Positions 23,979-44,534 are shown, numbered from the stretch's first letter. The stretch: DNA of 54,838 nucleotides from a virus (IMGVR_UViG_3300032285_003295:1-54838), one strand, 5' to 3'. Notes: a model not told the origin generated them from the sequence alone. Translations and numbers: made by a program.

Positions 23979-24461
23979 ATGAAGCACATTAAAACCCTAA
24001 ACGAGTATTTTGACACTGGCATCTTCGGTGATACCTATGGATACGGAGGAGCCAATGGCGTCCTTAAAATAAACTACAAGCCTTTTAGTGACCTATCGGT
24101 TTCTGTGGGACAAGACCCTAATCTAGAAACAACCGTAAAGGGATCAGAGTTTCAATTAGGAGATGTTGTTATAGCTGCCCCTTTAGATTCTAAAGAAAAA
24201 GTAATCGGTGTCGTTGTTAGAGCTTTTAGAGAGCCAGACAATAAGCAGTATAGATATTTTATTCAAGTTTACAATAAAGGAAAGAAAACAGAGAGGGTTA
24301 TAGAGGTTAAAGGCGACTCTATTGAATTTGCAGAGGGTGGAGATCATGGAAACATGGAAACAAAAGCTAAAGCTAAATTCAATCAAACCCCTGATGATTC
24401 TTATAATTCTAAGACAGTTTACAACGCTTCAGAACTTGGCCTAGAAACAACAGGAGGCTAA
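23979..24461 (+). CDS. Putative capsid-internal protein (SH3-like core)
   Basis: MKHIKTLNEY N-terminal motif; GATAAATA at 23966-23973. Confidence 0.6.
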   Translation: MKHIKTLNEYFDTGIFGDTYGYGGANGVLKINYKPFSDLSVSVGQDPNLETTVKGSEFQLGDVVIAAPLDSKEKVIGVVVRAFREPDNKQYRYFIQVYNKGKKTERVIEVKGDSIEFAEGGDHGNMETKAKAKFNQTPDDSYNSKTVYNASELGLETTGG

Positions 24462-24467
24462 TACCTC

Positions 24468-24494
24468 GGAACATTTTATTCCTTGAAGCTAAAA
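24468..24494 (+). promoter_or_regulatory. Middle-class promoter variant GGAAC-N17-TAAAA
   Basis: Intergenic, upstream of ATG 24509; spacer 1 nt shorter. Confidence 0.45.
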
Positions 24495-24508
24495 TAAAAA
24501 AAGGAATA

Positions 24509-25414
24509 ATGCTTTTCGGTCACAATCCCCCAGAAATAACGTATTTAGGACTACCCAATGAGGTGGTTTCAAAAGGAAAGATCGAGATTAATTCCTATAT
24601 TGATCTTATCACTATTTTTGTGGATACCTGCAAATTTAATTTACCCTTAGATATAAAGACAGTTTGTATAGACACTTCAGAACTGACATTCACCCCTAAT
24701 TTTTTTAAAACTAAGATAGAAGAAGAATCTCCTGAAGCATCTAGTTTGATTTATGAAGCAAATCAAATGATAGCTAAAAACGGAATTAGAATTTGTGTCT
24801 TTATAGGAAAGGATTATTTTTTAGGTAGCCAATTAGAGGATGTAAAAAATTCATCGGTCTCGCTTCTCGATTCTATTTCGGGAGTTCTAGATGCTCTTGG
24901 AATTAATTATCCTTCTATTATGGTGAGAATTGGATCGGCATATGGAAACAGAAAGAACACAATGTCTGAATTTTGTAAAAGACTTAAACTTCTTGACCCT
25001 TCTACTGTTTCTAAATTGTGTGTTGTTAACGACGATAAACCTAGCTTATTTTCTATTACAGATCTTTTAACCGGTGTTTATTATAAATCTGGGATTCCTA
25101 TATCTTTTAGATTACTTCCTCATCAATTTAACGATGGTGGTTTATCAATTAGAGAAGCCTTATTTCTGTCTTGTTCTAGCTGGACTAATGGTAAAAAGCC
25201 TATATTTTTCTATTCAGAATCTAAAGAATATGATCCAAATGGTATACCCTTGACCTCACAGCCCTCTGATTATCTAACCAGAAGGATACCAACATTTGGC
25301 TTATATGCTGACGTTGTTATAGAATCTCCATGCAAAGAAGACGTTTGTCTTAAATATCGGATGGATTATAAATCTCTTCCCCCTATAGTGATAAACAGAA
25401 TAGGTCAGAAGTAA
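24509..25414 (+). CDS. UV-damage endonuclease (UvsE)-like TIM-barrel protein, catalytic motifs degenerate
   Basis: IG.AYG.RK....F..R, NDDKPSLFS..DL, IPI.F, SSW...KP.F.YSES, DVVIE...KE layout. Confidence 0.7.
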   Translation: MLFGHNPPEITYLGLPNEVVSKGKIEINSYIDLITIFVDTCKFNLPLDIKTVCIDTSELTFTPNFFKTKIEEESPEASSLIYEANQMIAKNGIRICVFIGKDYFLGSQLEDVKNSSVSLLDSISGVLDALGINYPSIMVRIGSAYGNRKNTMSEFCKRLKLLDPSTVSKLCVVNDDKPSLFSITDLLTGVYYKSGIPISFRLLPHQFNDGGLSIREALFLSCSSWTNGKKPIFFYSESKEYDPNGIPLTSQPSDYLTRRIPTFGLYADVVIESPCKEDVCLKYRMDYKSLPPIVINRIGQK

Positions 25415-25424
25415 TTTTTTTATT

Positions 25425-25446
25425 CCGTAATTTTATTTTATTTTTA
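25425..25446 (+). promoter_or_regulatory. Early/host-type promoter variant CCGTA-N9-TATTTTTA
   Basis: Same layout as 4778 and 18981 with the last base G>A. Confidence 0.5.
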
Positions 25447-25459
25447 TAAAAAATTAAGA

Positions 25460-26167: not shown

Positions 26168-26191
26168 TTAACAAGTTCTAACAATATAACT

Positions 26192-26228
26192 AAAGCTTTT
26201 CTTTGATATATAAAGAAAAGCTTTTTTT
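26192..26228 (+). terminator. Terminator hairpin with late promoter GATATATA (26205-26212) in its loop
   Basis: AAAGCTTTTCTTT-GATATAT-AAAGAAAAGCTTT-TTTT, perfect 13-bp stem. Confidence 0.7.
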
Positions 26229-27035
26229 GTGGGCATAGTTTTACCTTATTCTGAGTATTTTAACCCGAGTCAGCCTTTAAATGAGGCCCAAATAGGACCT
26301 TTCTATAACGAGGAGCTATCTCCAATTTTCTGGACTAAGAAAATAAAAGACGGCAAGGAAACGTGGGTTTTTGATGAGAGAGTGAGAAAGAAGCTTCTCA
26401 GAATAGCTGATGACTTCTTTTCCAAGTTTGATGATATACTGAAGGAAAAAAATCTGATTGACGTTCAGCTCACAGGTTCTCTAGCTAATTTCAACTATAC
26501 CCCATTATCAGATCTTGATGTCCATTTAATAGTTAATCTTGATGGTGTGGATGACGACAACCCTAAGATTCTTAAAAGTGCTTTGGACGGTATAAGATTC
26601 ATCTGGAATCTGAGACACAATATAAGAATAAGGGGATATGACGTTGAGCTTTATATACAAGACAGAAAAGAACCACATTCAGCTTCTGGTCTATTCTCCC
26701 TGATGAACAACGAATGGATAAAATCTCCAGTCTTCGATCCTCCTGAAATTGATGAGAATGACGTGAATAAAAAAGCAGAGTCTCTATCATACGAAATAGA
26801 AGAACTTCACACTAGGTTATTAACATCAAGTCTTCCATCGAATGCTAAAGCCCTGTATAAAAGGTGTGTCTCCTTAAAGGAGAAGATCCAAAAAATGAGA
26901 AAGGAATCCCTATCAAAAGGTGGTGAATTCTCTGTTGGTAATCTTGCCTTTAAAAAGCTTAGAAATGAAGGATATATAGAAAAGCTGATAGATACAGCTT
27001 CTGAATCTTACGATAAAATTTATAACGAACAATAA
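26229..27035 (+). CDS. Pol-beta-family nucleotidyltransferase
   Basis: LTGSLANFNY...SDLDVH and downstream DVELY; GTG start; N-terminal ...YSEYF...LNE peptide. Confidence 0.8.
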   Translation: MGIVLPYSEYFNPSQPLNEAQIGPFYNEELSPIFWTKKIKDGKETWVFDERVRKKLLRIADDFFSKFDDILKEKNLIDVQLTGSLANFNYTPLSDLDVHLIVNLDGVDDDNPKILKSALDGIRFIWNLRHNIRIRGYDVELYIQDRKEPHSASGLFSLMNNEWIKSPVFDPPEIDENDVNKKAESLSYEIEELHTRLLTSSLPSNAKALYKRCVSLKEKIQKMRKESLSKGGEFSVGNLAFKKLRNEGYIEKLIDTASESYDKIYNEQ

Positions 27036-27038
27036 GAT

Positions 27039-29699
27039 ATGCTAGTATTATACCCAACCGCCGGAGATTATAAAAAAGGTGGTGAGATACCTATAATCAC
27101 ACTACCCACCTCATTACCAGGGGGTAAGAATGTTGAGTTGAATGATTTTCAATGGTGGGCTTACTCTAAAGATTTCGATCAATGGCTAAAGGCAAATCCT
27201 AGAAGCTGGCAAGCCGAATCTGTTGATTATTCTAAATTTCCTGACTGGGTTCAGCTTTTAAAGGAGAGCCAAAATTCAAGACTTCTTGGATCACTTAAGT
27301 CTAAGGGAAGGGTTTCCAGTTTTAATGATTATCTTAACGAGGAAACAAAACAGGGGGATGATCCTAATCACTTAGGAGCGGATGCCCTTAAGCTTCACTA
27401 TGCATATCAGAAATTAATTGCGGATAAGAAGATAGCGGAGGAGTTTAAGGTTAGTGTTGCTAACGAGGGAGATGACAAAGCTATATTCACAGTAATAAAA
27501 GATCCTAAAACCGGAAACGATTTAGACCCCAGCCTTTATGCTTTAAGGTTAAAATCGGTATCCACTCCAGAAAGTGCAAAGGTTAGAATTTTCACTATTG
27601 ATGAGACATTGCCTGGCGGTAATCTTCCAGATAACGCAAACGGAGAGTCTCTTTTTAAATCAATGGCAGAGACAGGAGCTCAGGTCCTTAAATATGGAGC
27701 AGCTGGAGCAGCAGTATGGGGTGGACTTAAAGCAGTGGAGTATGTAGGAGGAGGTATTTTTGCTCTTAGAACACTTAACAAAACTGTTAAAGGTTTTATG
27801 ACAAGAGGCGCTGCTAATCAGATCGCAAAGAAAGTGACTGTTAGCGGATTTGGTGGTTCAACTGAAGAAGTTGTAGCAGCAGAATCTGGAATTTTCAGTA
27901 AACTTCTGGCTAGTCCGACCGGTGTTTTTGTTAAAAGCGCAATTGGATGGCCTTATTATGTGGGCAAAGGACTTTATATGGGGGTTAAAGCTGCTACCTT
28001 TGCAGGTGAGGCTGCCGAGGGAGCTAGTATATTCTCAAGATTCTCCGGAGGATTTGCTGGCGCTTTAGAGGGAACCAATCCTATAGGTATTATTATAGGT
28101 GCAGTTACTTCCATTGAGAAATTATGGAATTGGTTTAGCAGCAATCAAGCACCAAGATTGGGAGAGGTTGATTCTTTCGCTTTTGGAAACTTCAGACCCA
28201 AAGATATAAAAATAGGTATTCCCATAACAGTATGCTGGACTCAGGAAGCTGGCGGTGTATGGGGGGTTTTAAGTTTTGTTGGACTGAGCAATGACACAAG
28301 AACCACGATGGAGATAATGAAAATTGCGGACGAAGGTGGCAATAGCCTTTTTATACTACTCCAGGTAAATTCTAAACAAATGCAGAAAGAACTTCAGGAT
28401 CACGAGCTGACCCTAATATCTTTTGCTGATAGCGAGAATTTCGAGAGAGGATTTTTTGATAATGATGATCTTGAGCTAACAATGCAATCTATAGACCATT
28501 TGGATAAGCTCGGAGCTGTTTATGGCTTCAAAGGAATGTGCGATTGGAATGAACTCGTAACTGCATACCAGGCATCTTCTAGTCAATATTTAGTTACTGA
28601 CGATGCTGCTCCTAAAACTTATGATTTCCATTTTACAGATTCTGAGGATAATGTTATCAACGTTTCAGGTAATATAGTTACGTCAGAGGATCTTGCTAAG
28701 TTTAGCGATTCGGATATGGAGGACATTTTTCACATGAAGGATGTTAAATCTGCTTTTACCCCATCTAAGGCTTCTTCGGATGGCGGGGGGACAGAAGTTG
28801 CTGACTCTGATGTTGATGTTTCTACAGAATTAACAGGTGCTGGTGTTAGTGAATCCCATAATTTTAAATTCTCAGGTAATCTTCTTGAGGGTGGATCTAT
28901 AGTTTCTTTTGATTCGTTTAACTCTATTAATGAGGAAGACGTTGATGCTACCATTAAATCCTCTAATGCTGAACTTGCTCCAAAAGCATCGACGGAAGCC
29001 GAAAATTCGAAGGAGATAGAATTAAGCCCAGAGCAGAAAAGCGGACCTGCTAAAATAGCGGTCTATTTGGTTCAGAGCAAGGAATACGCAGATTCTAAAC
29101 TCAGAGGAAAATTTTCAACAGGTAAATTTACTAATTTTACTGTTCCAACTGTTGCTTATACTGCAGAGCCTGAAACCCCAATCGATGTTCAGCCTAACAC
29201 AGTAGAACAGCTAGATAATGCTAAAGCTGGAATCTTCACATTCAAGGAAGAACAGGATGCCCCAGTGGTAGATAAACCAAAAGAGGAGCCAAAGAAGGAT
29301 GACGATACAGACAAAAAAGAGACTGGTAAAGACGATAAAACAGACAAAAAAGAGATTGATAAGGACTACTACGTTTCTGTTAAACCTGATGACGTAAACA
29401 TTAAGAATAAAAGGCATTCCACAAATATTATAGATAATTCAGAGGAGGGTGGTGTTAATCTTTTTGATAAGTTTTTAACCAATGTTCAAAAGGAGACCCT
29501 AAAAATAGAGAATTGGAAGTCTATCACATCTGCAAAAGCCTTCTATGATAACAAGGGGGATGTAATAGAGGTTAAGCTAATGAACAGATATGCACCATGG
29601 GGTGATAGGAAAAGACGCTATAAAGTGACCGACGGAGAGTCTTTCCAGGTGGCTAAACAGTTCATAGAAGACACTAAAGACAGGATAAAATACGAGTAA
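27039..29699 (+). CDS. Large putative internal/ejection protein with Gly/Ala-rich hydrophobic core
   Basis: 886 aa; GATATATA at 26971; internal SFNDYLNEE and SFDSFNSINEE motifs; several TM-like Gly/Ala helices. Confidence 0.6.
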   Translation: MLVLYPTAGDYKKGGEIPIITLPTSLPGGKNVELNDFQWWAYSKDFDQWLKANPRSWQAESVDYSKFPDWVQLLKESQNSRLLGSLKSKGRVSSFNDYLNEETKQGDDPNHLGADALKLHYAYQKLIADKKIAEEFKVSVANEGDDKAIFTVIKDPKTGNDLDPSLYALRLKSVSTPESAKVRIFTIDETLPGGNLPDNANGESLFKSMAETGAQVLKYGAAGAAVWGGLKAVEYVGGGIFALRTLNKTVKGFMTRGAANQIAKKVTVSGFGGSTEEVVAAESGIFSKLLASPTGVFVKSAIGWPYYVGKGLYMGVKAATFAGEAAEGASIFSRFSGGFAGALEGTNPIGIIIGAVTSIEKLWNWFSSNQAPRLGEVDSFAFGNFRPKDIKIGIPITVCWTQEAGGVWGVLSFVGLSNDTRTTMEIMKIADEGGNSLFILLQVNSKQMQKELQDHELTLISFADSENFERGFFDNDDLELTMQSIDHLDKLGAVYGFKGMCDWNELVTAYQASSSQYLVTDDAAPKTYDFHFTDSEDNVINVSGNIVTSEDLAKFSDSDMEDIFHMKDVKSAFTPSKASSDGGGTEVADSDVDVSTELTGAGVSESHNFKFSGNLLEGGSIVSFDSFNSINEEDVDATIKSSNAELAPKASTEAENSKEIELSPEQKSGPAKIAVYLVQSKEYADSKLRGKFSTGKFTNFTVPTVAYTAEPETPIDVQPNTVEQLDNAKAGIFTFKEEQDAPVVDKPKEEPKKDDDTDKKETGKDDKTDKKEIDKDYYVSVKPDDVNIKNKRHSTNIIDNSEEGGVNLFDKFLTNVQKETLKIENWKSITSAKAFYDNKGDVIEVKLMNRYAPWGDRKRRYKVTDGESFQVAKQFIEDTKDRIKYE

Positions 29700-29759: not shown

Positions 29760-31742
29760 ATGCCAAGTAATTTACAGAATACTACCCTTAACGAGCAAAT
29801 GGTTTTCATCCTAGAAAAGCAAGACTTTGTTTTAGAATCAAAGAAGAGCGACAATGGAAACTATATCCTAGAGGGTATAGCTGCTGTCTTCGGTAAAGAG
29901 AACAACAATCACAGAATCTATGAGGAAGCAGAATATCTTCCGCATCTTGATTATCTGAAAGATAAGATCTCTCAAAACAGACTTTTAGGTGAATTAGATC
30001 ACCCTGAGAAATTTGATGTTTCACTTAAGAACATCTCTCACATGATTACCGATCTAAACTACGATAAGTCAGGAAGAAAGCTAGGTATAAAGGTTCAGAT
30101 CTTAGATACCCCAGCAGGTCAAATAGCTAAAAATCTAATCGACGCTGGAATTCCACTTTCTATATCTTCAAGAGCAGCTGGATCTGTGGGATCAGACAAG
30201 AAGGTACAGATCAAAAAAATCTTTACCTATGATCTAGTAGCTGATCCTGGATTTCAGGATGCTCAGCTTAAAAGAGTCTATGAGTCTGCAGGTTTCACCG
30301 AAGAAGAATTCACAATCTATAAGAATAACAGCGTAACAAGCGGTCTTGAGTGTGTAAATGAATCATTTGGTTTAGAAAATGAATCTTCACTGAAGATATA
30401 TAAGATAGAAAACAACGAAGAGTTTAACAACATCATAAACAAAAACGACAACAAAAATAAGAAATTCCTTATGGAGAATAAAGAATTTGTTACTTCAGAC
30501 GAGCTTAATCAATATTCCATCTTCTTGAAGAAAGAGATGGATGCTATGAGAGCTGCAATCACAGAAGTCAAAGAAGAAAAAGCCGCATTAAGTGAGTCTA
30601 ATGAAATTTCAAGCTCATATTCTGCAAAGCTAGAAGAAAGAGTTGCTAAGTTAGAGAAATACACAGAGTATCTAGCTGAGAATCTTGAAAACAGTATCTC
30701 TTATGGAGAATACTTAGCAGAGAATTTAGATCAAAGCATCAGCTACAGTAAATACTTAGCTGAGAACCTTGATAAGAACATCTCTTACTCTAAGTACATA
30801 GCAGAGAACGTTGACAAGTCAATCTCTTATTCTGAGTATGTAGCAGAGAGCGTAGATAAGAATATCGAATACTCTAAGTATCTAGCTGAGAAATTGGATG
30901 ACAATATCCAATATTCAGAATACATAGCTGAAAACTTAGACAAAGGTATTTCTTATGCTGAGTATCTTGGTGAGAACCTAGATAAAGGAATTGCTTACAC
31001 TGAATATGTTGCCGAAAAACTAAATGATGGTATTGAATATACAGAATATGTTGCTGAAAGCCTAAATAAAGGAATTGAATATTCTGACTACTTAGCAGAA
31101 AGCATCAATAAAGGTATAGACTACTCTGAATATCTTGCAGAGAAATTAACAAGATCAATTTCTTACAGCGAATATATAGCAGAGTCTATGCAATCGAAAT
31201 TAACAAACTCAAATCCAGCGAAAGAAGAATCATTAAGAGAAAGTGCAGAGCTTAGTGCAAGTGCTAATCTAAATGAATCAGGATTTGCAGGTAACTATGA
31301 TGATCTTTCATCAAAAATCAATTCACTAATTGAATCAGTTAACACACAAAAAACTGAGTCGAATATAAACGAAGCAGCTAAGAAATTTGCAGCTCCGGCC
31401 GAAACACAAAAGGCAGAAGAAGTTCTTAACGAGTCTGAGAACACCAACAAAACAGGTCTTAAATTCATCGACGAAATTCCTGAAGAATATGCTCAGGTTT
31501 GGGAATCACTGAACGAAGGTCACAAGCAATCAATTATTGCTCAGTCAAACTTCTACAGATTGGATACACCTTACCAGATCAAAAATTTCTGGTCAACACG
31601 TCAACTTGGAGCTAAACCAGTTGGATTACAGAAACTTGAAGAGAACGAAAACATTTCAGAAAGCTCAAACACACAGGGTTATTCAAATGATTATATGAAT
31701 CACATAGCTTCAATGTTAGAGCAGAAATTCACAAAAAGATAA
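29760..31742 (+). CDS. Prohead protease (gp21-like) fused to scaffold/core protein (gp22-like)
   Basis: NNNHRIY, GELDHP, ISH, DTPAG, ISSRAAGSV, TYDLVADPGF; C-terminal coiled-coil with 14-aa repeats; directly upstream of MCP. Confidence 0.9.
   Translation: MPSNLQNTTLNEQMVFILEKQDFVLESKKSDNGNYILEGIAAVFGKENNNHRIYEEAEYLPHLDYLKDKISQNRLLGELDHPEKFDVSLKNISHMITDLNYDKSGRKLGIKVQILDTPAGQIAKNLIDAGIPLSISSRAAGSVGSDKKVQIKKIFTYDLVADPGFQDAQLKRVYESAGFTEEEFTIYKNNSVTSGLECVNESFGLENESSLKIYKIENNEEFNNIINKNDNKNKKFLMENKEFVTSDELNQYSIFLKKEMDAMRAAITEVKEEKAALSESNEISSSYSAKLEERVAKLEKYTEYLAENLENSISYGEYLAENLDQSISYSKYLAENLDKNISYSKYIAENVDKSISYSEYVAESVDKNIEYSKYLAEKLDDNIQYSEYIAENLDKGISYAEYLGENLDKGIAYTEYVAEKLNDGIEYTEYVAESLNKGIEYSDYLAESINKGIDYSEYLAEKLTRSISYSEYIAESMQSKLTNSNPAKEESLRESAELSASANLNESGFAGNYDDLSSKINSLIESVNTQKTESNINEAAKKFAAPAETQKAEEVLNESENTNKTGLKFIDEIPEEYAQVWESLNEGHKQSIIAQSNFYRLDTPYQIKNFWSTRQLGAKPVGLQKLEENENISESSNTQGYSNDYMNHIASMLEQKFTKR
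30395..30402 (+). promoter_or_regulatory. Internal late-class promoter GATATATA upstream of in-frame ATG 30471
   Basis: Exact motif after the protease domain, followed by an A-rich leader. Confidence 0.55.
30471..31742 (+). CDS. Putative nested in-frame scaffold protein (MENKEFVTSDELNQY...)
   Basis: In-frame ATG preceded by AAACAAAAACGACAACAAAAATAAGAAATTCCTT and an internal late promoter. Confidence 0.55.
   Translation: MENKEFVTSDELNQYSIFLKKEMDAMRAAITEVKEEKAALSESNEISSSYSAKLEERVAKLEKYTEYLAENLENSISYGEYLAENLDQSISYSKYLAENLDKNISYSKYIAENVDKSISYSEYVAESVDKNIEYSKYLAEKLDDNIQYSEYIAENLDKGISYAEYLGENLDKGIAYTEYVAEKLNDGIEYTEYVAESLNKGIEYSDYLAESINKGIDYSEYLAEKLTRSISYSEYIAESMQSKLTNSNPAKEESLRESAELSASANLNESGFAGNYDDLSSKINSLIESVNTQKTESNINEAAKKFAAPAETQKAEEVLNESENTNKTGLKFIDEIPEEYAQVWESLNEGHKQSIIAQSNFYRLDTPYQIKNFWSTRQLGAKPVGLQKLEENENISESSNTQGYSNDYMNHIASMLEQKFTKR
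30660..31187 (+). repeat. About 12.5 x 42-bp (14-aa) tandem repeat, consensus YSEYLAENLDKSIS
   Basis: Read directly; first Tyr codon 30660, thirteenth 31164 (12 x 42 nt). Confidence 0.95.
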
Positions 31743-31766: not shown

Positions 31767-33527
31767 ATGAAATTGATTAACGAACAAGAAATCTATAATA
31801 CTTGGGCGCCTCTAATCGAGAGCAAGGCTGGTATTACAGATGAAAGCAAAAAAGGATGGTTGACTAAATATTGTCACTACCATTCATTAAATGAATCTGC
31901 TGGTGCTTACAACTCACTAGGTGTAGTAAACGGTATGGGTGCTGTACAAGCTCCTTTATTCCCAGGTGCTAGCTATGCTGGTGCTTTAACTGGTACTGCT
32001 TCTACAAGCGCTAACGCAAACTTCTACAACACTGGATATCAAGGTTCAGGCGATAAATTCCCTTCATTACTTCCTTTAGCTATTCAGGTAGCTGCGAAGA
32101 CTGTTGGTTTTGATATCGTTCCTGTTATCCCAATGTCTGGTCCTACTGGTATCTTGTCTTACTTAGACTATGTATACGCTGGTGGTAAAATCTCTGGTGC
32201 TACTTCAGGTACTTCTGGTGCTGATCTAGCTGATGCTCCTACAATGATTAAATTCGGAGCTGGTTTAACTGGTTCTACTACTACACCAGTTGGTGGTGGT
32301 ACTGCAGGATTTGGTAGCACAAACGTAGGTACACTTTACTACATCGGTGCTACTGGAACTGTTACAACAGGATCTGGCCACATCACTGCTAAGTTTGTAG
32401 GTCTTTCAAGAATCGATGGTAGCCCAATCTACCAAATCACAAACATCGGTGATGGTTGGAACGTTGCTTCTATCGTTGCTGCTGGTGCCCTTATCTCTAC
32501 AAGCACTACAGTAAGTACAGCTAACGCAGTTGGTACTGTTACTACTACAGCTTCATTGGTTAAAGGTCTTGAAGATCATATCCAAGGTTTCTCTGGTGCT
32601 GGTTTTAACAATGATAAAGATTGGCAAGGACCATTCGTTGATGGTACTAAAACTTACAACCCAATGTTAAGAGCGGTTGGAGAGTCTACATACTACAATT
32701 CAATGGGTCTTTCTACCTTCACTAAATTCGTTGAAGCTGAAACTTTCCAAGTTGCTGCTTCTGTGACAACTGAGCAAATTCAAGATTTGAACAAACAATT
32801 CGGTATCGATGTTATTTCAATGATCGAAAACGCTCTTGTTAACGAGGTTTCTCAATCTATCAACAAGCACATCCTTTCTAGAGCATTTGCTTTAGGCTGG
32901 TCAAACCATCTTCAATTCTACAACGTTGAAAATCAAAACTTAAACCTTAACTTAAACATTAATGGTTCTGTAGGTACAACTTCAGCTTACGTAGGTAAGG
33001 ATGACGTGGGTGCAACTATGCCAATTCCTCAAGGTCCAACTAGCACTAGCTTCGAGAACTTGTCAACTCTACAAAGAAGACTATTCTCAAGAATTCTTGC
33101 TGCTGCTAACGTGGTTGCTAACAGAGGTAGAAGAGGTCCTGCTAACTTCATCGTTACTAATGCTAACGTTGCAAGTGCTTTGCAAGATATTTCTCAATTC
33201 ACTTTTGCTCCATTCTCTAACACCTTAACTCAAAACAACGGAACACTTTATCCAGTAGGTTCACTTGCTGGTATGACAGTATACGTTGACCAAAACATGG
33301 CTTTCAGTGATACTAGAATCTGTGTTGGTAGAAAAGGTGGTGACGACGAACCAGGTCTTAAGTTCATGCCTTACATGATGGCTGAGTCAATCCAGACTAT
33401 CTCAGAAGGTACAATGTCTCCTAAAATCGCGGTTAAATCTAGATATGCTCTAGTAGAAGCTGGTTTCTTACCAGAAACTTTGTATCTTACATTCTATGTA
33501 AGTGTACCTGCTGGCGGTATCGCTTAA
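31767..33527 (+). CDS. Major capsid protein (T4 gp23-like)
   Basis: W.PLIE, VPVIPMSGPTG, TTEQIQDL, NEVSQSINK, ANRGRRGPANF, VGSLAG..VYVD, FMPY, KSRYAL; strong codon bias. Confidence 0.95.
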   Translation: MKLINEQEIYNTWAPLIESKAGITDESKKGWLTKYCHYHSLNESAGAYNSLGVVNGMGAVQAPLFPGASYAGALTGTASTSANANFYNTGYQGSGDKFPSLLPLAIQVAAKTVGFDIVPVIPMSGPTGILSYLDYVYAGGKISGATSGTSGADLADAPTMIKFGAGLTGSTTTPVGGGTAGFGSTNVGTLYYIGATGTVTTGSGHITAKFVGLSRIDGSPIYQITNIGDGWNVASIVAAGALISTSTTVSTANAVGTVTTTASLVKGLEDHIQGFSGAGFNNDKDWQGPFVDGTKTYNPMLRAVGESTYYNSMGLSTFTKFVEAETFQVAASVTTEQIQDLNKQFGIDVISMIENALVNEVSQSINKHILSRAFALGWSNHLQFYNVENQNLNLNLNINGSVGTTSAYVGKDDVGATMPIPQGPTSTSFENLSTLQRRLFSRILAAANVVANRGRRGPANFIVTNANVASALQDISQFTFAPFSNTLTQNNGTLYPVGSLAGMTVYVDQNMAFSDTRICVGRKGGDDEPGLKFMPYMMAESIQTISEGTMSPKIAVKSRYALVEAGFLPETLYLTFYVSVPAGGIA

Positions 33528-34788: not shown

Positions 34789-35712
34789 ATGTCTTTACTT
34801 AAATTCCAAGAGTGGGAGCATCTCAACGAAGAGAATATATTTAGCAAAATCCAGAATTGGCTTAGCCGTAACTTTGGTGGAGCTCTAGAGAAGCTTGATG
34901 GATTGCTTGGTGCTTATAAAAAACTGGAGATGAGATTTGTTGATGAGTGGGAGGAGATAAAAGTGGATAATGACAAGTTAGAAATCCAGAGAGGACAAGT
35001 TAAAAACGATCCCGCTGAGTTAAAGAAGATAGACAGAATGCTTGAAAGAAATCAATCTTTAATATCTGCAGCAGCTAAGGTTCATGAGAAGAACACAGAT
35101 GAGCTTTTTATGAAGGTTAAGAAATTAATAGAGAGCAATAAGAAGCTACAAACATATTGGGAGACTAATAAAGTAAAGATTGATGCAGAGATATCTGAGG
35201 ATATGTATAAGATAGCTAAGAAGCTTACTGATTCAAAAGAGGCTGATGATTTATACAGCAAGTACAAGAAAACCGCTTTGGCTGCTAGAAAGAAGGATGA
35301 GGAGTTTAGAGAGCTATACGGAAATCTTATTGGCGATAGAGTTCCACCCCCACCTAAATCCACGCACGCAACGGTATCTTCGAAAGGACTTAGCGTTAAG
35401 TCTGTTGGTGGCATGGAGTCTAGCTTTGAATTGCTTTCAAGTGTCTCTTTATTGGAATTTGCAGATGCTGTTAAAGAATTTCCTAGCGATCAAGCTAAGA
35501 AGCTTGTATCGTATTTAACAAGTAAAAGAAACGATCTTTATGTTGCCATGGACATGGAAAGAGATCTTTTAAATACTGAAATAGAAAAAATGCCAAGAGA
35601 TCATGAAACTCGTGATTATGCATCAGCAAAGATCAAAGAGATTAGAGAGAAGTATATGAACCAAATAAGAGATCTAAGATCTAAAATAACAGTTGCTAAG
35701 AAATATGCTTAA
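34789..35712 (+). CDS. Putative capsid-internal coiled-coil protein (distant paralog of 33641..34786)
   Basis: MSLLKFQEWEHLNEE; NEENIFSKIQNWLSRNFGG resembles NEGQFLNDVKNTLSKFFLG. Confidence 0.65.
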   Translation: MSLLKFQEWEHLNEENIFSKIQNWLSRNFGGALEKLDGLLGAYKKLEMRFVDEWEEIKVDNDKLEIQRGQVKNDPAELKKIDRMLERNQSLISAAAKVHEKNTDELFMKVKKLIESNKKLQTYWETNKVKIDAEISEDMYKIAKKLTDSKEADDLYSKYKKTALAARKKDEEFRELYGNLIGDRVPPPPKSTHATVSSKGLSVKSVGGMESSFELLSSVSLLEFADAVKEFPSDQAKKLVSYLTSKRNDLYVAMDMERDLLNTEIEKMPRDHETRDYASAKIKEIREKYMNQIRDLRSKITVAKKYA

Positions 35713-35980
35713 GTTTAAAGAATTTGTCCTTAATGAGGCTGCGCCAGGAAAGGGAACTCAACTTGAAACAATCAAATTGAATTTAGCCAAAAGCTTTGAC
35801 GATATTAAGACAGCTAAGATGTCTAAAAAACCCGGGGATATAAACTCTGAGATTCTTAGCATTAATACTCAAGCAGCAATCTATACTAAGATATCAACTC
35901 TTTTGAAATCACTAGCTGTTGAGTTGAAAAAACCAGTAGCAGTGGACAAGACTAAACCACCAACTAACACTTTATACTAA
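35705..35980 (+). CDS. Small putative capsid-internal protein
   Basis: MLKFKEFVLNE; start moved to ATG 35705, overlapping the previous stop. Confidence 0.65.
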   Translation: MLKFKEFVLNEAAPGKGTQLETIKLNLAKSFDDIKTAKMSKKPGDINSEILSINTQAAIYTKISTLLKSLAVELKKPVAVDKTKPPTNTLY

Positions 35981-35993: not shown

Positions 35994-38519
35994 ATGAATA
36001 TGAAGAATCCTTATCTTTACAATCCAGTAGCTAAATCGCTATTGGAACAGTATGAACAGAAAATTTTTGAAAACGAGAATGTTGATGGACTATTGGCTAA
36101 GATATCCGATAATGCCTTAAATATTTTCAAGGTATTAACTTTCGATCTTGCACCGAAAAGAGATAGAAATCCTGATGTCATCAGAGTTAAATTATCTCAC
36201 ATCTCAGATTCTCAGAGCGTTAAATCTCTAACTGCTAAACTTCTGGATTATGCGGATGATAATGACGTTTCTAATTCTAAATTTGCTGAAGTTAAAAGGC
36301 TGTATTTAGAAAGTCTTAAAAAATACTGTGAGGCTTTAAACAGAGCAGTCGAAATAGGAAAGGATAAAGAGCAGAACATTGTTAAGATCTTTAACATGGG
36401 TGCTATGAAAGCTCAGAGCACGATAGATTTTATAGCTAAAGAAGCAGATGCGGAGGATAAGAGAAAGAAAGAATCCCTTAATGAGTCATTTGCAATAAAT
36501 GAGAACATATTTGAGGGATATAGAGGAAGAGTAAACGATTTGAGAAAAACGTTAACCAATCTTATAACATCAGCGGAGGGGAAAGATCAGAAAAGTGGAT
36601 ACGGCAGAAACTGGAAACAAGTTTTTATAGATCTAGATCAGAAAAGGCAAGCTTTAGATATCACTGAGAATGGAACAGCAAGAAAGAAGGATAAGGATGC
36701 TTTAGAAAAATTGGAGAAAGACGTTCATAAGTTTCAAGATGAATTCAACACTGCTTTAATTAATGCTTCTAATAAATCTATCCAACAGGTTGAGAGCGAT
36801 GATGAGGTGAATACCAAATATCAAGATGTTACTGAATTAACGGATCAGGCCATAATATACCAAACTAAAGCTAAAACCCAATACCTTTTAGCAATGGAAG
36901 AAATCAGGGATGAGATCAAGGCTAAGGAGGATAACGTGAGCAAGGTTTTATTCCCGCTCAAAAGAGGAGACACAGACTCAGATCCTAAGATCAAAGGAAC
37001 AGGACTTATTTTTGCTATCCAAACTGCAATGGCAAATGGCATAACTGCTTTTGGTAAATTGATTAAACAGAAGAAAGGGCCAAATGGCAAATTTGGACCT
37101 GCTACACAATCTGGCGTAATGGCAATCCAAAAGATCAGTGGAAATAAAAATGCTAACGGTGAAATAGATAAAAATCTTTTGCATGATATAATGATCTCAG
37201 ATTGGGTTTCTGATAAAGACAGGAAAACAATACAGAAGGCTTTAGATACCATAAAGGATAAAATGAACGAAGGATTCGGTTCTGGAAATTACGTTTCTAG
37301 AATGAGTGAATTCGTTGGAGCTTTAAATGAAGATAAAATTGTAATTAATCAATCAGAATTCGAGAAGGAATTAAACACCCAATACAAAAGCATAGCGGGG
37401 GATAAAGAAAAATCTTCGGATGAGACAGTTGATCATAGCCACAAGAGCTCTAAAGACGTTCCATCTCTAGCAAAGAGATTAAGAACAGAGTATGGTCTAA
37501 AGGTAGAGGAAGACACTTTCCTTAAATCAGATGGAGCTCTTAAATCTGCTTACACTCACGAGTTCATTAAATCATGGGATAAAGCCATCGATGAAACAAA
37601 TAAATCTGGAAAAAAAGAAGAGACGTCTTATTTTTATTCTAAAGGCGGACTTTATAATATTAATGTTGCATCCTCATCTTTAAGAACACCCTGTAACGCT
37701 CACGCTTGGATGGAGAGCAGAAAGATCAAATCATTCTCTGAAGAAGACACTTTAGATTTTATATCTAATTATCTAAAAGGATGGAAAACATTTGGTATGA
37801 TTAGACCTGAATGGAGATACGAGGGGATAAAAGAATTGATGGGAAAAATAGAGAAGGATGGAGAGTATTCAAAAGAGCATAAGAATGCTTATGATTCTAT
37901 GAGTTCAGCAATTAAAAATAAATCAGTTCCTTTTATAGATTACAGTGATCTTAAAGGTCCAATAGCTATGGCATTTAAGATGGTCTCACAAGCTAATGAG
38001 AAAGATCCAGATCTCACTATGGGAGATGCTATTGCTATTAATAACTTTTTTGTTATAATAGCTAATGCAATTAGTTGCACAGATGAGGGTAAGTTTATAA
38101 GCTGTATTAAATGGATCCATGATAATGCTTTAGGTGAAAAGTCATCAAGAGGGTTTAAGTTTAGAAGCGGATGGCTTGAGGATATTACAGGTAAATCATC
38201 AGGGGAAGGCTCGATCCTCACTTTTGAAAGTAGCAGAATTCCGATTAAGGAAGCTTCTAAAATACAGAGAGTCGATCTTGAATCAATTGATGCGGAGAGA
38301 ATGTCTAAAGAACTTTCTGCATACGCTCAGATAGTAAAAGATCTTCAGAAAGAAGATCCATCTAATAAAGCAATTGCACTTTTTGGCAAAAATCTTTATC
38401 ACATTTTATCCGACATTTATCCAAGTATAAGCTCGCATGTTCAAAGAATGAACGCTAAAACATTTAGTGACGTTCCTCAGAAACCACCTTTCTTATGCGT
38501 TGATATGGACGGTAAATAA
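35994..38519 (+). CDS. Large putative virion protein with peptidoglycan-binding-like domain
   Basis: LKRGD...IFAIQ...NGKFGPATQSGVMAIQK...NGEIDKNL fits the PG_binding_1 pattern; several L/I-x-E sites. Confidence 0.6.
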   Translation: MNMKNPYLYNPVAKSLLEQYEQKIFENENVDGLLAKISDNALNIFKVLTFDLAPKRDRNPDVIRVKLSHISDSQSVKSLTAKLLDYADDNDVSNSKFAEVKRLYLESLKKYCEALNRAVEIGKDKEQNIVKIFNMGAMKAQSTIDFIAKEADAEDKRKKESLNESFAINENIFEGYRGRVNDLRKTLTNLITSAEGKDQKSGYGRNWKQVFIDLDQKRQALDITENGTARKKDKDALEKLEKDVHKFQDEFNTALINASNKSIQQVESDDEVNTKYQDVTELTDQAIIYQTKAKTQYLLAMEEIRDEIKAKEDNVSKVLFPLKRGDTDSDPKIKGTGLIFAIQTAMANGITAFGKLIKQKKGPNGKFGPATQSGVMAIQKISGNKNANGEIDKNLLHDIMISDWVSDKDRKTIQKALDTIKDKMNEGFGSGNYVSRMSEFVGALNEDKIVINQSEFEKELNTQYKSIAGDKEKSSDETVDHSHKSSKDVPSLAKRLRTEYGLKVEEDTFLKSDGALKSAYTHEFIKSWDKAIDETNKSGKKEETSYFYSKGGLYNINVASSSLRTPCNAHAWMESRKIKSFSEEDTLDFISNYLKGWKTFGMIRPEWRYEGIKELMGKIEKDGEYSKEHKNAYDSMSSAIKNKSVPFIDYSDLKGPIAMAFKMVSQANEKDPDLTMGDAIAINNFFVIIANAISCTDEGKFISCIKWIHDNALGEKSSRGFKFRSGWLEDITGKSSGEGSILTFESSRIPIKEASKIQRVDLESIDAERMSKELSAYAQIVKDLQKEDPSNKAIALFGKNLYHILSDIYPSISSHVQRMNAKTFSDVPQKPPFLCVDMDGK

Positions 38520-40648: not shown

Positions 40649-41317
40649 ATGTCTAAGATTAAAAAACTTGAAGAATTCCAACTGAATGAGGATTTCAGCT
40701 TATCAAATATAGGCAACAGTCTTATGGGCTTAGTAGGAAAGGTTATTCCTGTTCTAGGCGGTGGATTTGTTAAAACCATTAAACAAAAGATAACTGCTAT
40801 CATACTAGAAAAAGTTGGTATCAAAGAGAAATCAACCCTTTCTGTGCTTGTTCAAGAATTTGTAGATCAAATTCCTCCATCGGATCTCCCTGGAATACTA
40901 ACAGGTGAAAAAGCAAATGCTGAATATCTAGCCCCTAAAATGGCTGCTTTCCTACAGGAGTTTATCCAAAGGAAAGGCCTTGATAGTTTGGCTGAGCAGA
41001 TGGGAATAGAAACCACTGGCTGGCTTTACTCAACAATAAGAGAATCTATACAGGGTGAAATTGGTAAGGAAAAATTAACTAAACTTTTCTTAAATCTTTT
41101 TGGCTCTATGCCGCATGTCGGTGGAACTGCAATAAACAGTTTAGATCCTGCGGATAAAAGCAAATTTGAAGACGCTTTGAATCAAAGACTTACCACCTCA
41201 CAAACTGTAGCACCGACATCTAGTGCTTCTCCAAGTACTGGAAATACTACGCAAAGTCCATTCTCTAGCTTCTTTAGTGGTTTGCTTACCGGTGCTAAAG
41301 GTGATCAAAACCAATAA
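40649..41317 (+). CDS. Putative capsid-internal protein
   Basis: MSKIKKLEEFQLNED N-terminal motif; late promoter. Confidence 0.65.
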   Translation: MSKIKKLEEFQLNEDFSLSNIGNSLMGLVGKVIPVLGGGFVKTIKQKITAIILEKVGIKEKSTLSVLVQEFVDQIPPSDLPGILTGEKANAEYLAPKMAAFLQEFIQRKGLDSLAEQMGIETTGWLYSTIRESIQGEIGKEKLTKLFLNLFGSMPHVGGTAINSLDPADKSKFEDALNQRLTTSQTVAPTSSASPSTGNTTQSPFSSFFSGLLTGAKGDQNQ

Positions 41318-41335: not shown

Positions 41336-41680
41336 ATGAATTTACAAAACGTATCACAGAGGGAAGTTTTAGCATTTGACCAATTTCTAAAAAAGGTTCA
41401 TGATAATAACTATAAACCATTAGCCCCTTCAAATCAGTCTCAGGGTGGATTGGAAAAATCAGGTCTCTCCCCTATTAAAAGAGAGCCTGCATACGATCAC
41501 GTTGGATATGCTGATGCCTATTTTGCAGGAACATCTAAGATAAATGTTCCAGGTGTGAGAGTTAATTTTGACGGAAAACAAGGTATGGCAGACTCTTCCA
41601 GTTTTGGAACTACCACCATGACCCAAACTTCTGAATCTGTTGAATCCCCTAAAGGATTAAAGAGACTATGCGATTTTTAA
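41336..41680 (+). CDS. Hypothetical protein
   Basis: 114 aa, A-rich leader; VLAFDQFL and C-terminal LKRLCDF resemble the targeting motif. Confidence 0.65.
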   Translation: MNLQNVSQREVLAFDQFLKKVHDNNYKPLAPSNQSQGGLEKSGLSPIKREPAYDHVGYADAYFAGTSKINVPGVRVNFDGKQGMADSSSFGTTTMTQTSESVESPKGLKRLCDF

Positions 41681-41700: not shown

Positions 41701-41725
41701 AAAAGGTCCAATAGGACCTTTTTTT
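41701..41725. terminator. Bidirectional terminator between convergent genes
   Basis: AAAAGGTCC-AATA-GGACCTTTTTTT. Confidence 0.85.
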
Positions 41726-42299: not shown

Positions 42300-42309
42300 T
42301 TGCTAAATT

Positions 42310-43053
42310 TTAGGGTGATTGCAATTTATTTATCTCTTCTATAAATCTCTCTTTAGAAAGTTTATAAATCTCTGATTCCTCATCAAAATTCTCATATATC
42401 TCAATAACATAGAGACTAGGAAAATGCCCACTATTGGGATTGAACTCTTCTAGAATCTCGTGGTATATGTACTCGTAGCTAAGAGAAAAGAATGGATTTT
42501 TTAGATGTATTTTTTTCATCATAATCATCTCTTTTGACTTCTCTCCTGTTTTTATTTTAATGTTTGCTTTGAAGAAGTAGTTCAATAGCTTATCCGTAAT
42601 CATGTTCCTTATTATTAAAATACCTGATCCTTCTTCTTTACTGTGTGATTCGAATTTTGATTGAATTTTAAAGATCTTTATTTTAGACTCTTCCTCTTTT
42701 AGCATCTCTAGACATATCTCGGAGTATCCATACAGTGTTTCTAGAGATTGCTCAACGATGGCATCCAGTGAATCTTTCTCCTCTTTAGTTATTCTTTTAG
42801 CGCTAAACTTCTCAAAAAATGACTTTTCACTTTTTGTTAGGTATTGGTATATTGGATCCCACTTAGTCATACCATTTTCTTTATAGAGATTCAGTGATTT
42901 TACCAGTCTTGATATGTCCTTAAGGATTGAGAAGCAGGTGTCAGAGTTTAGTCCCTTGCTAGCACTTTTTAAATAGTCTAATAAAATGTACTCCTTTTGC
43001 TCCGAATCTAGGGGATCTTTTAGAAACCACAGGGGGCTCAATTTCTTTTTCAT
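42310..43053 (-). CDS. Hypothetical protein
   Basis: Start likely MKKKLSPLWF (43053), with AATATATA late-like motif on the - strand at 43074-43081. Confidence 0.65.
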   Translation of the reverse strand: MKKKLSPLWFLKDPLDSEQKEYILLDYLKSASKGLNSDTCFSILKDISRLVKSLNLYKENGMTKWDPIYQYLTKSEKSFFEKFSAKRITKEEKDSLDAIVEQSLETLYGYSEICLEMLKEEESKIKIFKIQSKFESHSKEEGSGILIIRNMITDKLLNYFFKANIKIKTGEKSKEMIMMKKIHLKNPFFSLSYEYIYHEILEEFNPNSGHFPSLYVIEIYENFDEESEIYKLSKERFIEEINKLQSP

Positions 43054-43099
43054 TGCCCAAATTTTATATAATCTATATATTTTAACTCGTTGGATAAGG

Positions 43100-43107
43100 G
43101 ATATATA
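43100..43107 (+). promoter_or_regulatory. Late-class promoter GATATATA (back to back with a - strand motif)
   Basis: Upstream of ATG 43126. Confidence 0.55.
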
Positions 43108-43125
43108 CAAGAAAAAGAACTCAGA

Positions 43126-43557
43126 ATGCCAAGAATTTACGACTATAGCTCATTTTCCTCATCAAATACTGGATCTAGTAGAGGCGAATATTCATTCGGT
43201 CTTCCTTTGAAATATGTTGATATCGACATTTACAATAGACCTGAGGAATATGCAAATATAGAGGATGCTAAGGTTTTTATAGAATACTCTGTTAGTCTTG
43301 ATGTTGAAAAAGATGGTATATCTGGAGTAAATTTCTTAGTGAATAGTGTGGAAGTTGAATTCTCTGTGGATGATTATCCAAATCCAGTTAAGCAATTTGA
43401 TATCGACCTAATTCCTGGCAAAACTATAGATATAGGTCAGATGAAATCTGATGTTGGCGAAAATCCAATTCCGACAAATCCAACGGGGATAAAGATAAAC
43501 ATGAACATGTCAACTGACCCCAAGAAATTTGATGTCATCGTTTCATTCGGTTCCTAA
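43126..43557 (+). CDS. Hypothetical protein
   Basis: Start moved to MPRIYDYSSF (43126), downstream of the promoter motif. Confidence 0.65.
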   Translation: MPRIYDYSSFSSSNTGSSRGEYSFGLPLKYVDIDIYNRPEEYANIEDAKVFIEYSVSLDVEKDGISGVNFLVNSVEVEFSVDDYPNPVKQFDIDLIPGKTIDIGQMKSDVGENPIPTNPTGIKINMNMSTDPKKFDVIVSFGS

Positions 43558-43571
43558 TATTTAATATTAAA

Positions 43572-44534
43572 ATGTCAATACTAAACTTTTCCGATTTTTC
43601 CAGAATAAATGAGTCAGAGGACCATTACAATATCCCTGGGGTTATTTCCACTGATGAGGGTGGATACGAATTTCATGTTTGTGATTCAACGTCCGGTGGT
43701 GCTGACGATGATAAGATAGTTGTATCTAAGATTAATGGAAATTCAATCTGTCTTACGTATTTAAAAGACGATGGTGAAGATGCGGATTCTTTATGGATCC
43801 CTTTAGATGCAATGGATATACAGAAAGATTCGGATAATAAGATAACTAAAATTGTTTTAAGCCCTTATAATCGTTGGTTCTCAGATCCTTCTAATTCTGT
43901 AAAGGTAGATGACTTTATTGAGTCATTTGCAGATAGCATAGAAACCACTAAAATGAGACAAGATCCTTCTATGGGTGATTTTGCCAAAGATGATGTTGAA
44001 ATGGTTTTAGATATTCTAGATCTTCCCCTGAAGGTGGCTGAATTTTCTAAAACCGATGATAATACTTGGGAAGCTGTTTTAGATAATGGATCTTTAATAG
44101 AAATAAAGAAGAGAAGCAAGGATGATCTAATGGGATCTTTTAAAATCTACACTAATAAATCTGATTACCTTCCATCTATTTTTATAAAGAATAATTCAGG
44201 TAAAAAATCAACAACCTTTAATTTGGGTGATGCGGAAATCCCTGAGATGGAGGAGGAGATAGGATTTTCAGATTTAAAGAACGGTTCACCATATCATAAA
44301 TATCTTATCAAGAAGTGCTTCGGCATAGGTTCTGAAGGGGATAAAGACAACTTGGTTAATTACTTTAAAGATGTTGTAGGTACACACAGTAATGACTATA
44401 AAAATTCAGAAGACGCTAATATCAAAAAATCAGGCGAACAAAAATCTGAATACATTAAAAGAATGGCTAAGGTTCTCACCACATTTTTGCCATTTAATGA
44501 TGTCCAGGAGATGTCAAGGGTTGAATTAAAGTAG
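43572..44534 (+). CDS. Putative capsid-internal acidic protein
   Basis: MSILNFSDFSRINESE N-terminal motif. Confidence 0.65.
   Translation: MSILNFSDFSRINESEDHYNIPGVISTDEGGYEFHVCDSTSGGADDDKIVVSKINGNSICLTYLKDDGEDADSLWIPLDAMDIQKDSDNKITKIVLSPYNRWFSDPSNSVKVDDFIESFADSIETTKMRQDPSMGDFAKDDVEMVLDILDLPLKVAEFSKTDDNTWEAVLDNGSLIEIKKRSKDDLMGSFKIYTNKSDYLPSIFIKNNSGKKSTTFNLGDAEIPEMEEEIGFSDLKNGSPYHKYLIKKCFGIGSEGDKDNLVNYFKDVVGTHSNDYKNSEDANIKKSGEQKSEYIKRMAKVLTTFLPFNDVQEMSRVELK

Follow-up and report, generated by a model that had tools for sequence, protein, structure and literature searches.

A candidate two-part loading and cleavage peptide on late head proteins of a huge T4-superfamily phage

Introduction

Do the late head proteins of an uncultured phage share a short peptide that loads them into the prohead and is then cut away by the phage's own protease? 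The question is raised by a virus stretch of 54,838 bases (IMGVR_UViG_3300032285_003295:1-54838; the entire record of the virus, hereafter the window), for which an earlier note, made from the sequence alone, listed eight N-terminal and three internal peptides resembling the capsid-targeting sequence of phage T4 and read them as an expanded code for packaging injected proteins. All eight N-terminal and all three internal strings were recovered exactly where they had been reported, and the parallel with T4 holds, down to the residues that mutation has marked as important in T4.

In T4, IPIII and IPII begin with MKTYQEFIAE and IPI with MKTFKEF...ITE, the propeptides of known substrates end in (L/I)-x-E, and gp22, gp21 and gp24 have similar N-terminal motifs. 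According to the parts of PMC9026906 available to us, the first 10 residues of IPIII are sufficient for packaging, with residues 4 and 7 (Tyr and Phe) chiefly responsible for targeting and residues 8 and 10 (Ile and Glu) required for processing, and the sequence is proposed as a general route by which T4-like phages load varied proteins, a proposal also made in PMC3012670. The selection of proteins for the T4 prohead core is described as mysterious in the accessible portion of a 2023 review (PMC9958956). In phiKZ-like phages, as far as the available parts of PMC5694885 and PMC10052503 describe them, a homologous protease cuts many of the head and ejection proteins after Glu, at (A/S/G)-x-E, and the propeptides have been proposed to target proteins into the prohead.

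Here, by analogy with T4, we argue that late head proteins of the window probably carry a two-part code for loading and cleavage. The principle is already in print; specific to the present case are Asn at P2 (the residue before the Glu after which the cut would fall), a variable spacer, internal cassettes, a protease-fused scaffold with one site per repeat, and the scale. Within the open-access literature we found no paper that applies the tag principle to metagenomic huge phages or to Bacteroidota phages, and the wording 'capsid targeting' occurs in papers on T4, P1 and SPN3US and not once in the 15 listed metagenome papers on jumbo phages, huge phages or megaphages.

Results

The window was divided by a mechanical, greedy open reading frame (ORF) call into 57 genes of at least 50 aa, named here by their first coordinate and lying on the plus strand unless stated otherwise, and was compared with 80 of at least 227 related IMG/VR stretches (capsid proteins 70-87% identical, contigs of up to 434 kb). 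Nine of the 57 genes carry [LI]NE within their first 27 residues, against 1.68 expected from the internal rate of the tripeptide (Poisson p 6.5e-5) and about 1 expected from composition. All nine belong to the 19 genes that start between 23979 and 44534, and none of the 38 genes outside this head region has one, so that one refuting outcome named in the earlier note, a motif equally common in early and middle proteins, was not borne out. Internal [LI]NE sites number 19, with 10 of them in four head-module proteins (27039, 29760, 31767 and 35994). A strict pattern of Met, an aromatic pair at positions i and i+3, and [LI]NE matches six of the 57 genes (shuffle mean 0.2 and maximum 2 over 200 shuffles) and none of 255 internal windows started at Met. 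The aromatic pair stands upstream of the site in six of the nine window tags, and Lys stands two residues before the first aromatic in MLKFKEFVLNE, MSLLKFQEWEHLNE, MSILNFSDFSRINE, MSKIKKLEEFQLNE, MKNLPSFNEFRKYDSLME and MGIVLPYSEYFNPSQPLNE. A looser pattern that accepts any (L/I/V)-x-E ending finds 10 of 57 genes against 3.3-3.8 expected, and three of its matches (8296, 20309 and 25460) look false. Tripeptide enrichment was also computed over all 80 loci and was dropped as dominated by repeated orthologues.

The Leu, Asn and Glu codons of the conserved positions differ among the tags, and BLASTP gives no match with an E of 0.01 or below between the mature parts of any two tagged proteins. Because the codons vary and the mature parts lack such similarity, the tag signal is, judged from these comparisons, modular and selected at the peptide level rather than inherited along with a common domain.

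The presumed cleavage half of the peptide also occurs in two assembly proteins that the earlier list of carriers, otherwise accurate in its strings, had overlooked. The gene at 29760..31742 encodes a prohead protease fused in frame to a scaffold (660 aa), with the N-terminal peptide MPSNLQNTTLNE (29760-29795). Its protease domain, at about residues 21-190, matches Pfam Peptidase_S77 (PF03420; 35.5 bits, cut-off 27) and, like the proteases of phiKZ, 201phi2-1 and SPN3US, Pfam S80 (31.3 bits, cut-off 23.4), as well as the head maturation protease family PHROG 207 (E 1.3e-39). BLASTP aligns it with T4 gp21 at 29% identity over 111 aa (E 1e-6), with the ...ELDHP... and ...SSR... stretches kept; we take these to hold the catalytic His and Ser. 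By these matches, a prohead protease of the S77 (gp21) family is encoded together with the head genes. The adjacent gene (31767..33527) encodes the major capsid protein of the gp23 family (Pfam Gp23, E 9.3e-41), which BLASTP aligns with T4 gp23 at 22% identity over 577 aa (E 3e-14) from residue 1 onwards, propeptide included. Its predicted propeptide (residues 1-43; 31767-31895) holds two sites, MKLINE ending at residue 6 and HYHSLNE ending at residue 43. With the motif on both the protease and the capsid protein, (L/I)NE is tied to the T4-family protease, and its form fits the (L/I)-x-E rule of the T4 family with a preference for Asn at P2.

The scaffold part of the fusion contains 13 tandem 14-residue repeats (residues 301-482; 30660-31205) of the form Y-(S/T/G/A)-(E/K/D)-Y-(L/I/V)-(A/G)-E-(N/K/S)-(L/V)-(D/N)-x-x-I-x, followed by four more (L/I)NE sites at residues 504-586. 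The 62 orthologues have 8-14 units, mostly 13; of the 797 units, 793 have Tyr at position 1, 796 have Tyr at position 4 and every one has Glu at position 7. AlphaFold2 (AF2) models residues 285-499 as a single continuous helix, with a best predicted local distance difference test score (pLDDT) of 80.4 and a range of 37 to 80 over five models. The heptad Y-x-x-Y-(L/I/V)-A-E of each unit has the same spacing as Y-Q-E-F-I-A-E in the T4 tag. As with the T4 core proteins gp22, gp67 and gp68, which gp21 cuts into small pieces, this is a charged helical scaffold, rich in (L/I)-x-E sites and encoded next to the protease and capsid genes; unlike the T4 core, it is fused to the protease and built of 13 near-perfect repeats, and no such repeat was seen in the first 90 residues of T4 gp22, the part inspected.

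Among the proteins with N-terminal tags, the 160-aa product of 23979..24461 begins with MKHIKTLNE (23979-24005), lacks an aromatic pair and matches no family in Pfam or PHROGs. The 268-aa protein of 26229..27035 (tag MGIVLPYSEYFNPSQPLNE, 26229-26285) probably has a Pol-beta-type nucleotidyltransferase (NTase) fold: it contains a G-S-x10-D-L-D motif, and Pfam NTP_transf_2 reaches 19.2 bits, under the cut-off of 21. In its AF2 model (mean pLDDT 82) the tag is a flexible extension predicted at low confidence (pLDDT 47-55 for residues 1-20). The top Foldseek matches of the model, ANT(9)/AadA and CdnE/CdnC, have weak scores (best E 5.6e-4, TM 0.23); a PDB profile search with the alignment gave only DrrA (E 0.14 and 0.29), and VIA-align returned generic helical bundles matching residues 171-268 and nothing on the N-terminal domain. 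We describe the protein as probably of NTase fold and nothing beyond that. Two Lys/Glu-rich proteins, of 381 aa (33641..34786; tag MKNLPSFNEFRKYDSLME, 33641-33694) and 307 aa (34789..35712; tag MSLLKFQEWEHLNE, 34789-34830), have seven and eight (L/I/V)-x-E sites beyond the tag, respectively, and are probably core or scaffold parts. The tag of 33641 is present as described, except that it terminates in LME and not LNE; further sites follow at residues 25-27 (within ELINE, residues 23-27) and 40-42 (within TVNE, residues 39-42).

The 91-aa protein of 35705..35980, whose start is an ATG inside a longer frame opening with TTG, has the tag MLKFKEFVLNE (35705-35737) and a mature part that is basic (net charge +6) with zero (L/I/V)-x-E; in being small and basic it is like the T4 internal proteins, of which IPI begins with MKTFKEF. 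In the 222-aa protein of 40649..41317 the tag MSKIKKLEEFQLNE (40649-40690) is followed by a Gly-rich hydrophobic stretch, and no family was found in Pfam or PHROGs. The acidic 320-aa protein of 43572..44534 (tag MSILNFSDFSRINE, 43572-43613) likewise has no family in Pfam or PHROGs and no usable match in the ESM Atlas. The 143-aa protein of 43126..43557, which had been put forward as a weaker carrier, begins with MPRIYDYSSF, and the pattern M-x-R-I-Y-D-Y-x-x-F is kept in its family; with no conserved (L/I/V)-x-E it carries the aromatic half alone and is a half tag at most. The tags are 9-19 aa long and the capsid propeptide 43 aa. Read from the sequences, with no signal-peptide predictor run, the tags are acidic and amphipathic and have no hydrophobic run; the hydrophobic core of about 10-15 residues that follows a basic N-terminus in Sec and Tat signal peptides is absent from them. 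Downstream of the tagged 40649, a 114-aa family (41336-41680) has the N-terminus M-N-x-Q-x-V-x-x-R-E-(I/V)-L-D-F-x-x-F, an i,i+3 aromatic pair with no subsequent (L/I/V)-x-E.

Gene order is maintained across the 80 related loci, in which we counted the orthologues whose first 35 aa include [LI]NE. The tag is present in 45/55 orthologues of 23979, 49/62 of 29760, 72/77 of 31767 and 56/65 of 34789. For four other genes the count rises when the broader motif is accepted, from 24/55 to 34/55 (26229), from 10/68 to 35 (33641), from 6/33 to 27 (35705) and from 5/45 to 22 (40649). The sites that lack Asn read ILE, ISE, LTE, VDE or IQE and remain (L/I/V)-x-E; the aromatic pair persists in the orthologues, and the spacer between the halves varies in length. 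Untagged genes give 0/52 (22985), 0/54 (23417), 0/52 (39185), 0/45 (41336) and 1/55 (24509). A crude first-match pick gave 327 sites of the tagged families, 170 of which have Asn at P2, against a background of 9.6%. P3 is I in 121, L in 117, F in 71, V in 14 and M in 4, in a pick that was limited to L/I/V/M/F, that also takes some F-x-E inside the aromatic pair and that could not return Ala, Ser or Gly; the tags quoted from the window and its orthologues have L, I or V at P3.

Because the aromatic pair is only marginally enriched in the window alone, we brought in two near-complete relatives, G002 (343,544 bp; 496 ORFs) and G004 (270,629 bp; 354 ORFs), two of five records examined. Within the first 16 residues, the pattern [LIV]K.[FY]..[FYW] is found in 15 genes of G002 against 0.7 expected and in 10 genes of G004 against 0.5 expected, and aromatic spacings of i+2, i+4 and i+5 are not enriched in either. 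Regular expressions tag 32 genes in G002 and 25 in G004, and we estimate that these two relatives carry about 25-40 tagged genes each, roughly 7-8% of genes. Seven of 38 scanned G002 tagged proteins have a Pfam family (ADK, RimK ATP-grasp, OmpA, two SLT, CHAP and PG_binding_1), and the other 31 have no Pfam domain above the cut-off. In all seven the tag precedes the domain, which in the ADK protein begins at residue 27.

Two large proteins have the peptide internally. The 886-aa product of 27039..29699 has no N-terminal tag and two internal ones, VSSFNDYLNE at residues 92-101 (27312-27341) and LLE-GGSIVSFDSFNSINE at residues 615-632 (28881-28934), the latter with cleavage motifs on either side. 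In a 52-sequence alignment both are kept as (V/I)-x-S-F-x-(D/E)-(F/Y)...(L/I/V/M/F)-x-E, and the second is preceded by (L/I/V)-(L/N)-E-(S/G). The 841-aa product of 35994..38519, whose N-terminus terminates in (L/I/F)-x-E-N-E, has a conserved LNE-S/INE at residues 162-170 (36477-36503) and a cassette MNE-GFGSGNYVSRMSEFVGALNE at residues 424-446 (37263-37331), kept in a 41-sequence alignment as MNE-...-S-x-S-(D/E)-F-...-(L/I/V)NE. From this layout both resemble polyproteins in which cleavage-tag-cleavage cassettes set the segments apart, an arrangement that we did not find described in the available parts of the T4 and SPN3US literature.

The tagged genes are also linked by an upstream motif, GATATATA, of which the window has 11 copies, all of them on the plus strand; 3.56 would be expected, and no shuffle out of 100 gave as many. 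One copy lies at 26205..26212 and the others start at 7967, 10260, 14550, 26971, 29725, 30395, 33609, 40623, 43100 and 45231. The motif stands 8-76 nt before four tagged genes (26229, 29760, 33641 and 40649), before 43126 with its half tag (its ATG comes 26 nt after the motif) and before the internally tagged 27039; within the same range it precedes the untagged genes 7991 and 10268, the portal gene 14617, and an in-frame Met within the protease gene. The copy at 45231 falls within a gene (44857-45507); the next start, at 45509, is 278 nt further on. Nearly all carriers had been said to lie behind late motifs, which is right at the level of operons; directly upstream, GATATATA is found for four of the eight claimed N-terminal carriers (26229, 33641, 40649 and 43126), and the remaining four lie downstream of a motif-headed gene on the same strand.

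Orthologues show the same arrangement. GATATATA is upstream in 55/55 orthologues of 26229, 54/56 of 27039, 58/59 of 29760, 61/68 of 33641, 44/45 of 40649, 25/26 of 43126 and 27/53 of 23417, and in none of those of 24509, 25460, 31767, 34789, 35705, 38619, 39185 and 41336. Hence, GATATATA heads operons, and every tagged gene has it directly ahead or lies behind a gene that does. Extended to the two near-complete relatives, the comparison of tagged with other genes shows a 7- to 10-fold enrichment behind the motif: it lies directly upstream of 16/32 regex-tagged genes against 43/464 others in G002 (odds ratio 9.8, p 3e-8), and of 11/25 against 32/329 in G004 (p 3e-5); for the partly hand-curated G002 set the numbers are 24/40 against 35/456. 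We take GATATATA to resemble the T4 late promoter, and the window encodes a gp55-like late sigma factor (13137..13496; PHROG 234, late sigma transcription factor, E 4.1e-16). On the strength of this likeness and of the gp55-like gene, GATATATA is likely to be a late promoter with the 13137 product as its reader.

The copy at 30395 lies 76 nt before an in-frame Met of the protease gene (residue 238, MENKEFV...; region 30395-30491), and 58/61 orthologues keep the motif 70-79 nt before the in-frame Met of ME-x-N-x-E-F-V-T-A. This suggests a nested, separately expressed scaffold-only product, and such products occur in some other phages.

By Pfam and PHROGs, the window encodes a tail sheath, two tail-tube paralogues, a gp55-like late sigma factor, a head-closure protein, two adjacent portal paralogues, replication enzymes, the prohead protease-scaffold fusion, a gp23-family capsid protein and a baseplate hub. 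In tblastn searches the capsid protein is nearest to those of uncultured huge phages and Lak megaphages (41-42% identity), with more remote matches in cultured Flavobacterium, Tenacibaculum, Chryseobacterium and Sphingomonas phages. Given the capsid identity of the relatives and their contigs of up to 434 kb, the window is a fragment of an uncultured huge myovirus of the T4 superfamily, with a host probably in the Bacteroidota.

The more distant relative LR756500 has a capsid protein with MIKLINE and a few M...INE starts, and does not share the 13-repeat scaffold; in Lak-A1, with TAG read as a sense codon, the tag picture is not clear. Many (L/I/M/V)NE sites are found in the protease/scaffold and capsid proteins of two cultured phages, MaF61 of Flavobacterium and PTm1 of Tenacibaculum. 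In MaF61, ORF140 (L101 3121-7335) encodes a protease-scaffold fusion of 1,404 aa that contains 15 or more (L/I/M)NE sites, and the capsid protein of PTm1 (L102) has TINE and IINE close to its N-terminus. No virion mass spectrometry for MaF61 was found in the accessible parts of PMC13269007.

Discussion

The probable two-part code could work as follows. The C-terminal half, (L/I/V)-N/x-E, would be the site at which the phage's own gp21-type serine prohead protease cuts after Glu; the same motif would trim the capsid protein after residues 6 and 43, and it recurs in the N-terminus of the protease, in its C-terminal tail and, one copy per unit, in the 13 scaffold repeats. The N-terminal half, two aromatics three residues apart and often (L/I)-K-x-F-x-(D/E)-F, would hold the precursor in the scaffolding core during shell closure, as the capsid-targeting sequence does in T4. 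One cut per unit would break the scaffold into 14-residue peptides, tags and scaffold pieces would exit the head after cleavage, and the mature proteins would remain with the DNA and probably be ejected into the host. Candidate cargo comprises the NTase-like enzyme, the small basic protein, fragments of the two large polyproteins and several proteins without an assigned function. Delivery is less likely for 33641, 34789, the capsid protein and the scaffold part of 29760, which more probably serve in assembly and are then trimmed or destroyed. Cell-wall enzymes would be expected among ejected proteins, and those among the G002 tagged proteins fit host delivery and do not prove it.

The closest known parallel is the tag that gp21 removes from IPI, IPII, IPIII and Alt of T4, likewise a short N-terminal peptide (10-19 aa) on unrelated proteins. 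Both have an aromatic pair at i,i+3, Lys at -2 and an (L/I)-x-E end, and MKTYQEFIAE and MKTFKEF of T4 resemble MLKFKEFVLNE of the window and MEKLKSFSEFLAE of G002. Unlike in T4, the tags here belong to a distant lineage (capsid protein 22% identical to gp23), have mostly Asn at P2, place a spacer of 0 to about 12 residues between the aromatic pair and the site, occur on about 25-40 carriers per genome instead of a handful, stand also internally in cassettes flanked by cleavage motifs, and are known from sequence alone. The phiKZ-like systems, as far as the available sources describe them, differ in having mostly long propeptides (111-254 aa, against tags of 9-19 aa here) and a small residue (A/S/G) at P3, where the present tags have L/I/V, as in T4.

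Several points weigh against the two-part code. The functional claims, that is cleavage, targeting, retention and ejection, are all inferred from the T4 analogy. The code is not uniform, given that the cleavage half stands alone in 23979, the protease and the capsid protein, as the aromatic half does in the 43126 family. The pattern [FYW].[DE][FYW] alone is marginal in the window (5/57 genes against 1.7 expected, p 0.027), and the chance rate of the loose regular expression is high, with 70 matches found in G002 against 29-37 expected; the tagged-gene counts per genome are therefore estimates, made with patterns of sizeable chance rates. The G002 list of 40 is partly hand-curated (eight regex matches dropped and 17 added by eye), and gene starts come from a mechanical call. 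Lastly, a 9-residue position matrix built from the scaffold repeat places 12 N-terminal windows among its top 80 in G002, against 5.85 expected (p 0.013), one among its top 10 there against 0.73 expected, and three among the top 80 of the window itself against 4.06 expected.

This last result bears on a bolder version of the mechanism, which was prompted by the T4 tag spacing in each repeat heptad. The tag might be one borrowed unit of the scaffold, such that cargo co-assembles with the helix of about 195 residues formed by 13 copies of Y-x-x-Y-(L/I/V)-A-E-x7 and the protease then dissolves both. By the position matrix a rigid match between tag and repeat is weak, the likeness at the level of the pattern alone standing; a complex prediction of the scaffold repeats (38 rows) with the 91-aa 35705 protein (22 rows) gave 0.00 twice, the controls not having been folded, and speaks neither for nor against it. 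Because the matrix support is weak, we did not adopt the borrowed unit as our principal explanation and consider it doubtful.

Leaving the borrowed unit aside, the alternative that demands the most care accepts the cleavage half and doubts the aromatic one: the tags would be cleavage-only propeptides, their aromatic pair an exosite, a folding or inhibitory element or a leftover, and entry into the head would depend on other contacts. Proteins with the cleavage half and no aromatic pair (23979, the protease and the capsid protein) suit this explanation, as does SPN3US, in which, by the accessible parts of the literature, about 80% of head proteins are uncleaved, so that loading without a tag exists. 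However, the i,i+3 pair is 20-fold enriched at N-termini in the K-x context and other spacings are not, the aromatic positions coincide with residues required for targeting in T4 by mutation (in the available parts of that work), and the pair is retained in the internal cassettes of the two large proteins (52 and 41 sequences). We regard cleavage-only propeptides as unlikely.

A different objection grants targeting and denies delivery, since the tagged proteins could all be scaffold or core that is degraded and expelled, as are gp22, gp67 and gp68 of T4. Such a fate is easily imagined for the Lys/Glu-rich 33641 and 34789, with their seven and eight further (L/I/V)-x-E, and for scaffold repeats with one site each. 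It suits poorly the folded, enzyme-like tagged proteins with few internal sites, namely 26229 and, in G002, the ADK, ATP-grasp, two SLT and CHAP proteins, or the basic mature part of 35705 with its lack of sites; as an account of all tagged proteins it is quite improbable. Still harder to credit, and in our view very improbable, is a shared N-terminus that is not a capsid signal at all and serves secretion, degradation or translation start. Lys-rich codons 2-5 are common in AT-rich genomes and several of the G002 tagged proteins act on the cell wall, which would speak for it, yet the tags are acidic and amphipathic without a hydrophobic core, they occur on the capsid protein and the protease, both of which assemble in the cytoplasm, the codons of the conserved residues vary, and the motif is also found internally between flanking cleavage motifs.

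Should the two-part code be right, a signal kept on dozens of genes in a distant clade would mean that it is old and general across the T4 superfamily, and many natural variants of the tag would be available for mapping its important residues. The cargo of an uncultured huge phage could then be predicted from its genome, including candidate wall-piercing, host-takeover or counter-defence enzymes. Cassettes flanked by cleavage sites and a scaffold with one site per repeat would be design features for loading foreign proteins into phage heads. If the doubtful borrowed unit were also true, it would name the long-sought receptor of the T4 capsid-targeting sequence and make the packaged proteome of any T4-superfamily phage readable from sequence; in this clade it would amount to about 8% of genes, with cell-wall hydrolases, adenylate kinase, ATP-grasp and NTase-like enzymes.

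Neighbouring genes

Some further genes of the window are noted here. The 865-aa product of 10268-12865 has no family and has INE sites at residues 50, 359 and 465; as GATATATA ends one base before its ATG, the true start may be a downstream Met, and a further late protein of the head or virion may be encoded here. A thymidylate-kinase-like gene (38619-39185) and a gene for a 472-aa protein beginning MCGI... (39185-40603; PHROG 16728, of unknown function) are interposed among tagged head genes of their own strand, and neither has a GATATATA motif to itself; in class-II glutamine amidotransferases the initiator Met is typically followed directly by Cys. On the minus strand the window has just two genes (41724-43110), which are wedged among the tagged late genes and encode a 2OG-Fe(II) oxygenase-like protein (PHROG 61, E 6e-27) and an unassigned protein of 266 aa. 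Two pairs of adjacent paralogues have near-identical N-termini beginning MAG..., the portal pair (14617-16227 and 16237-17904; PHROG 213, E 4e-59 and 1.5e-64) and the tail-tube pair (516-1070 and 1087-1662).

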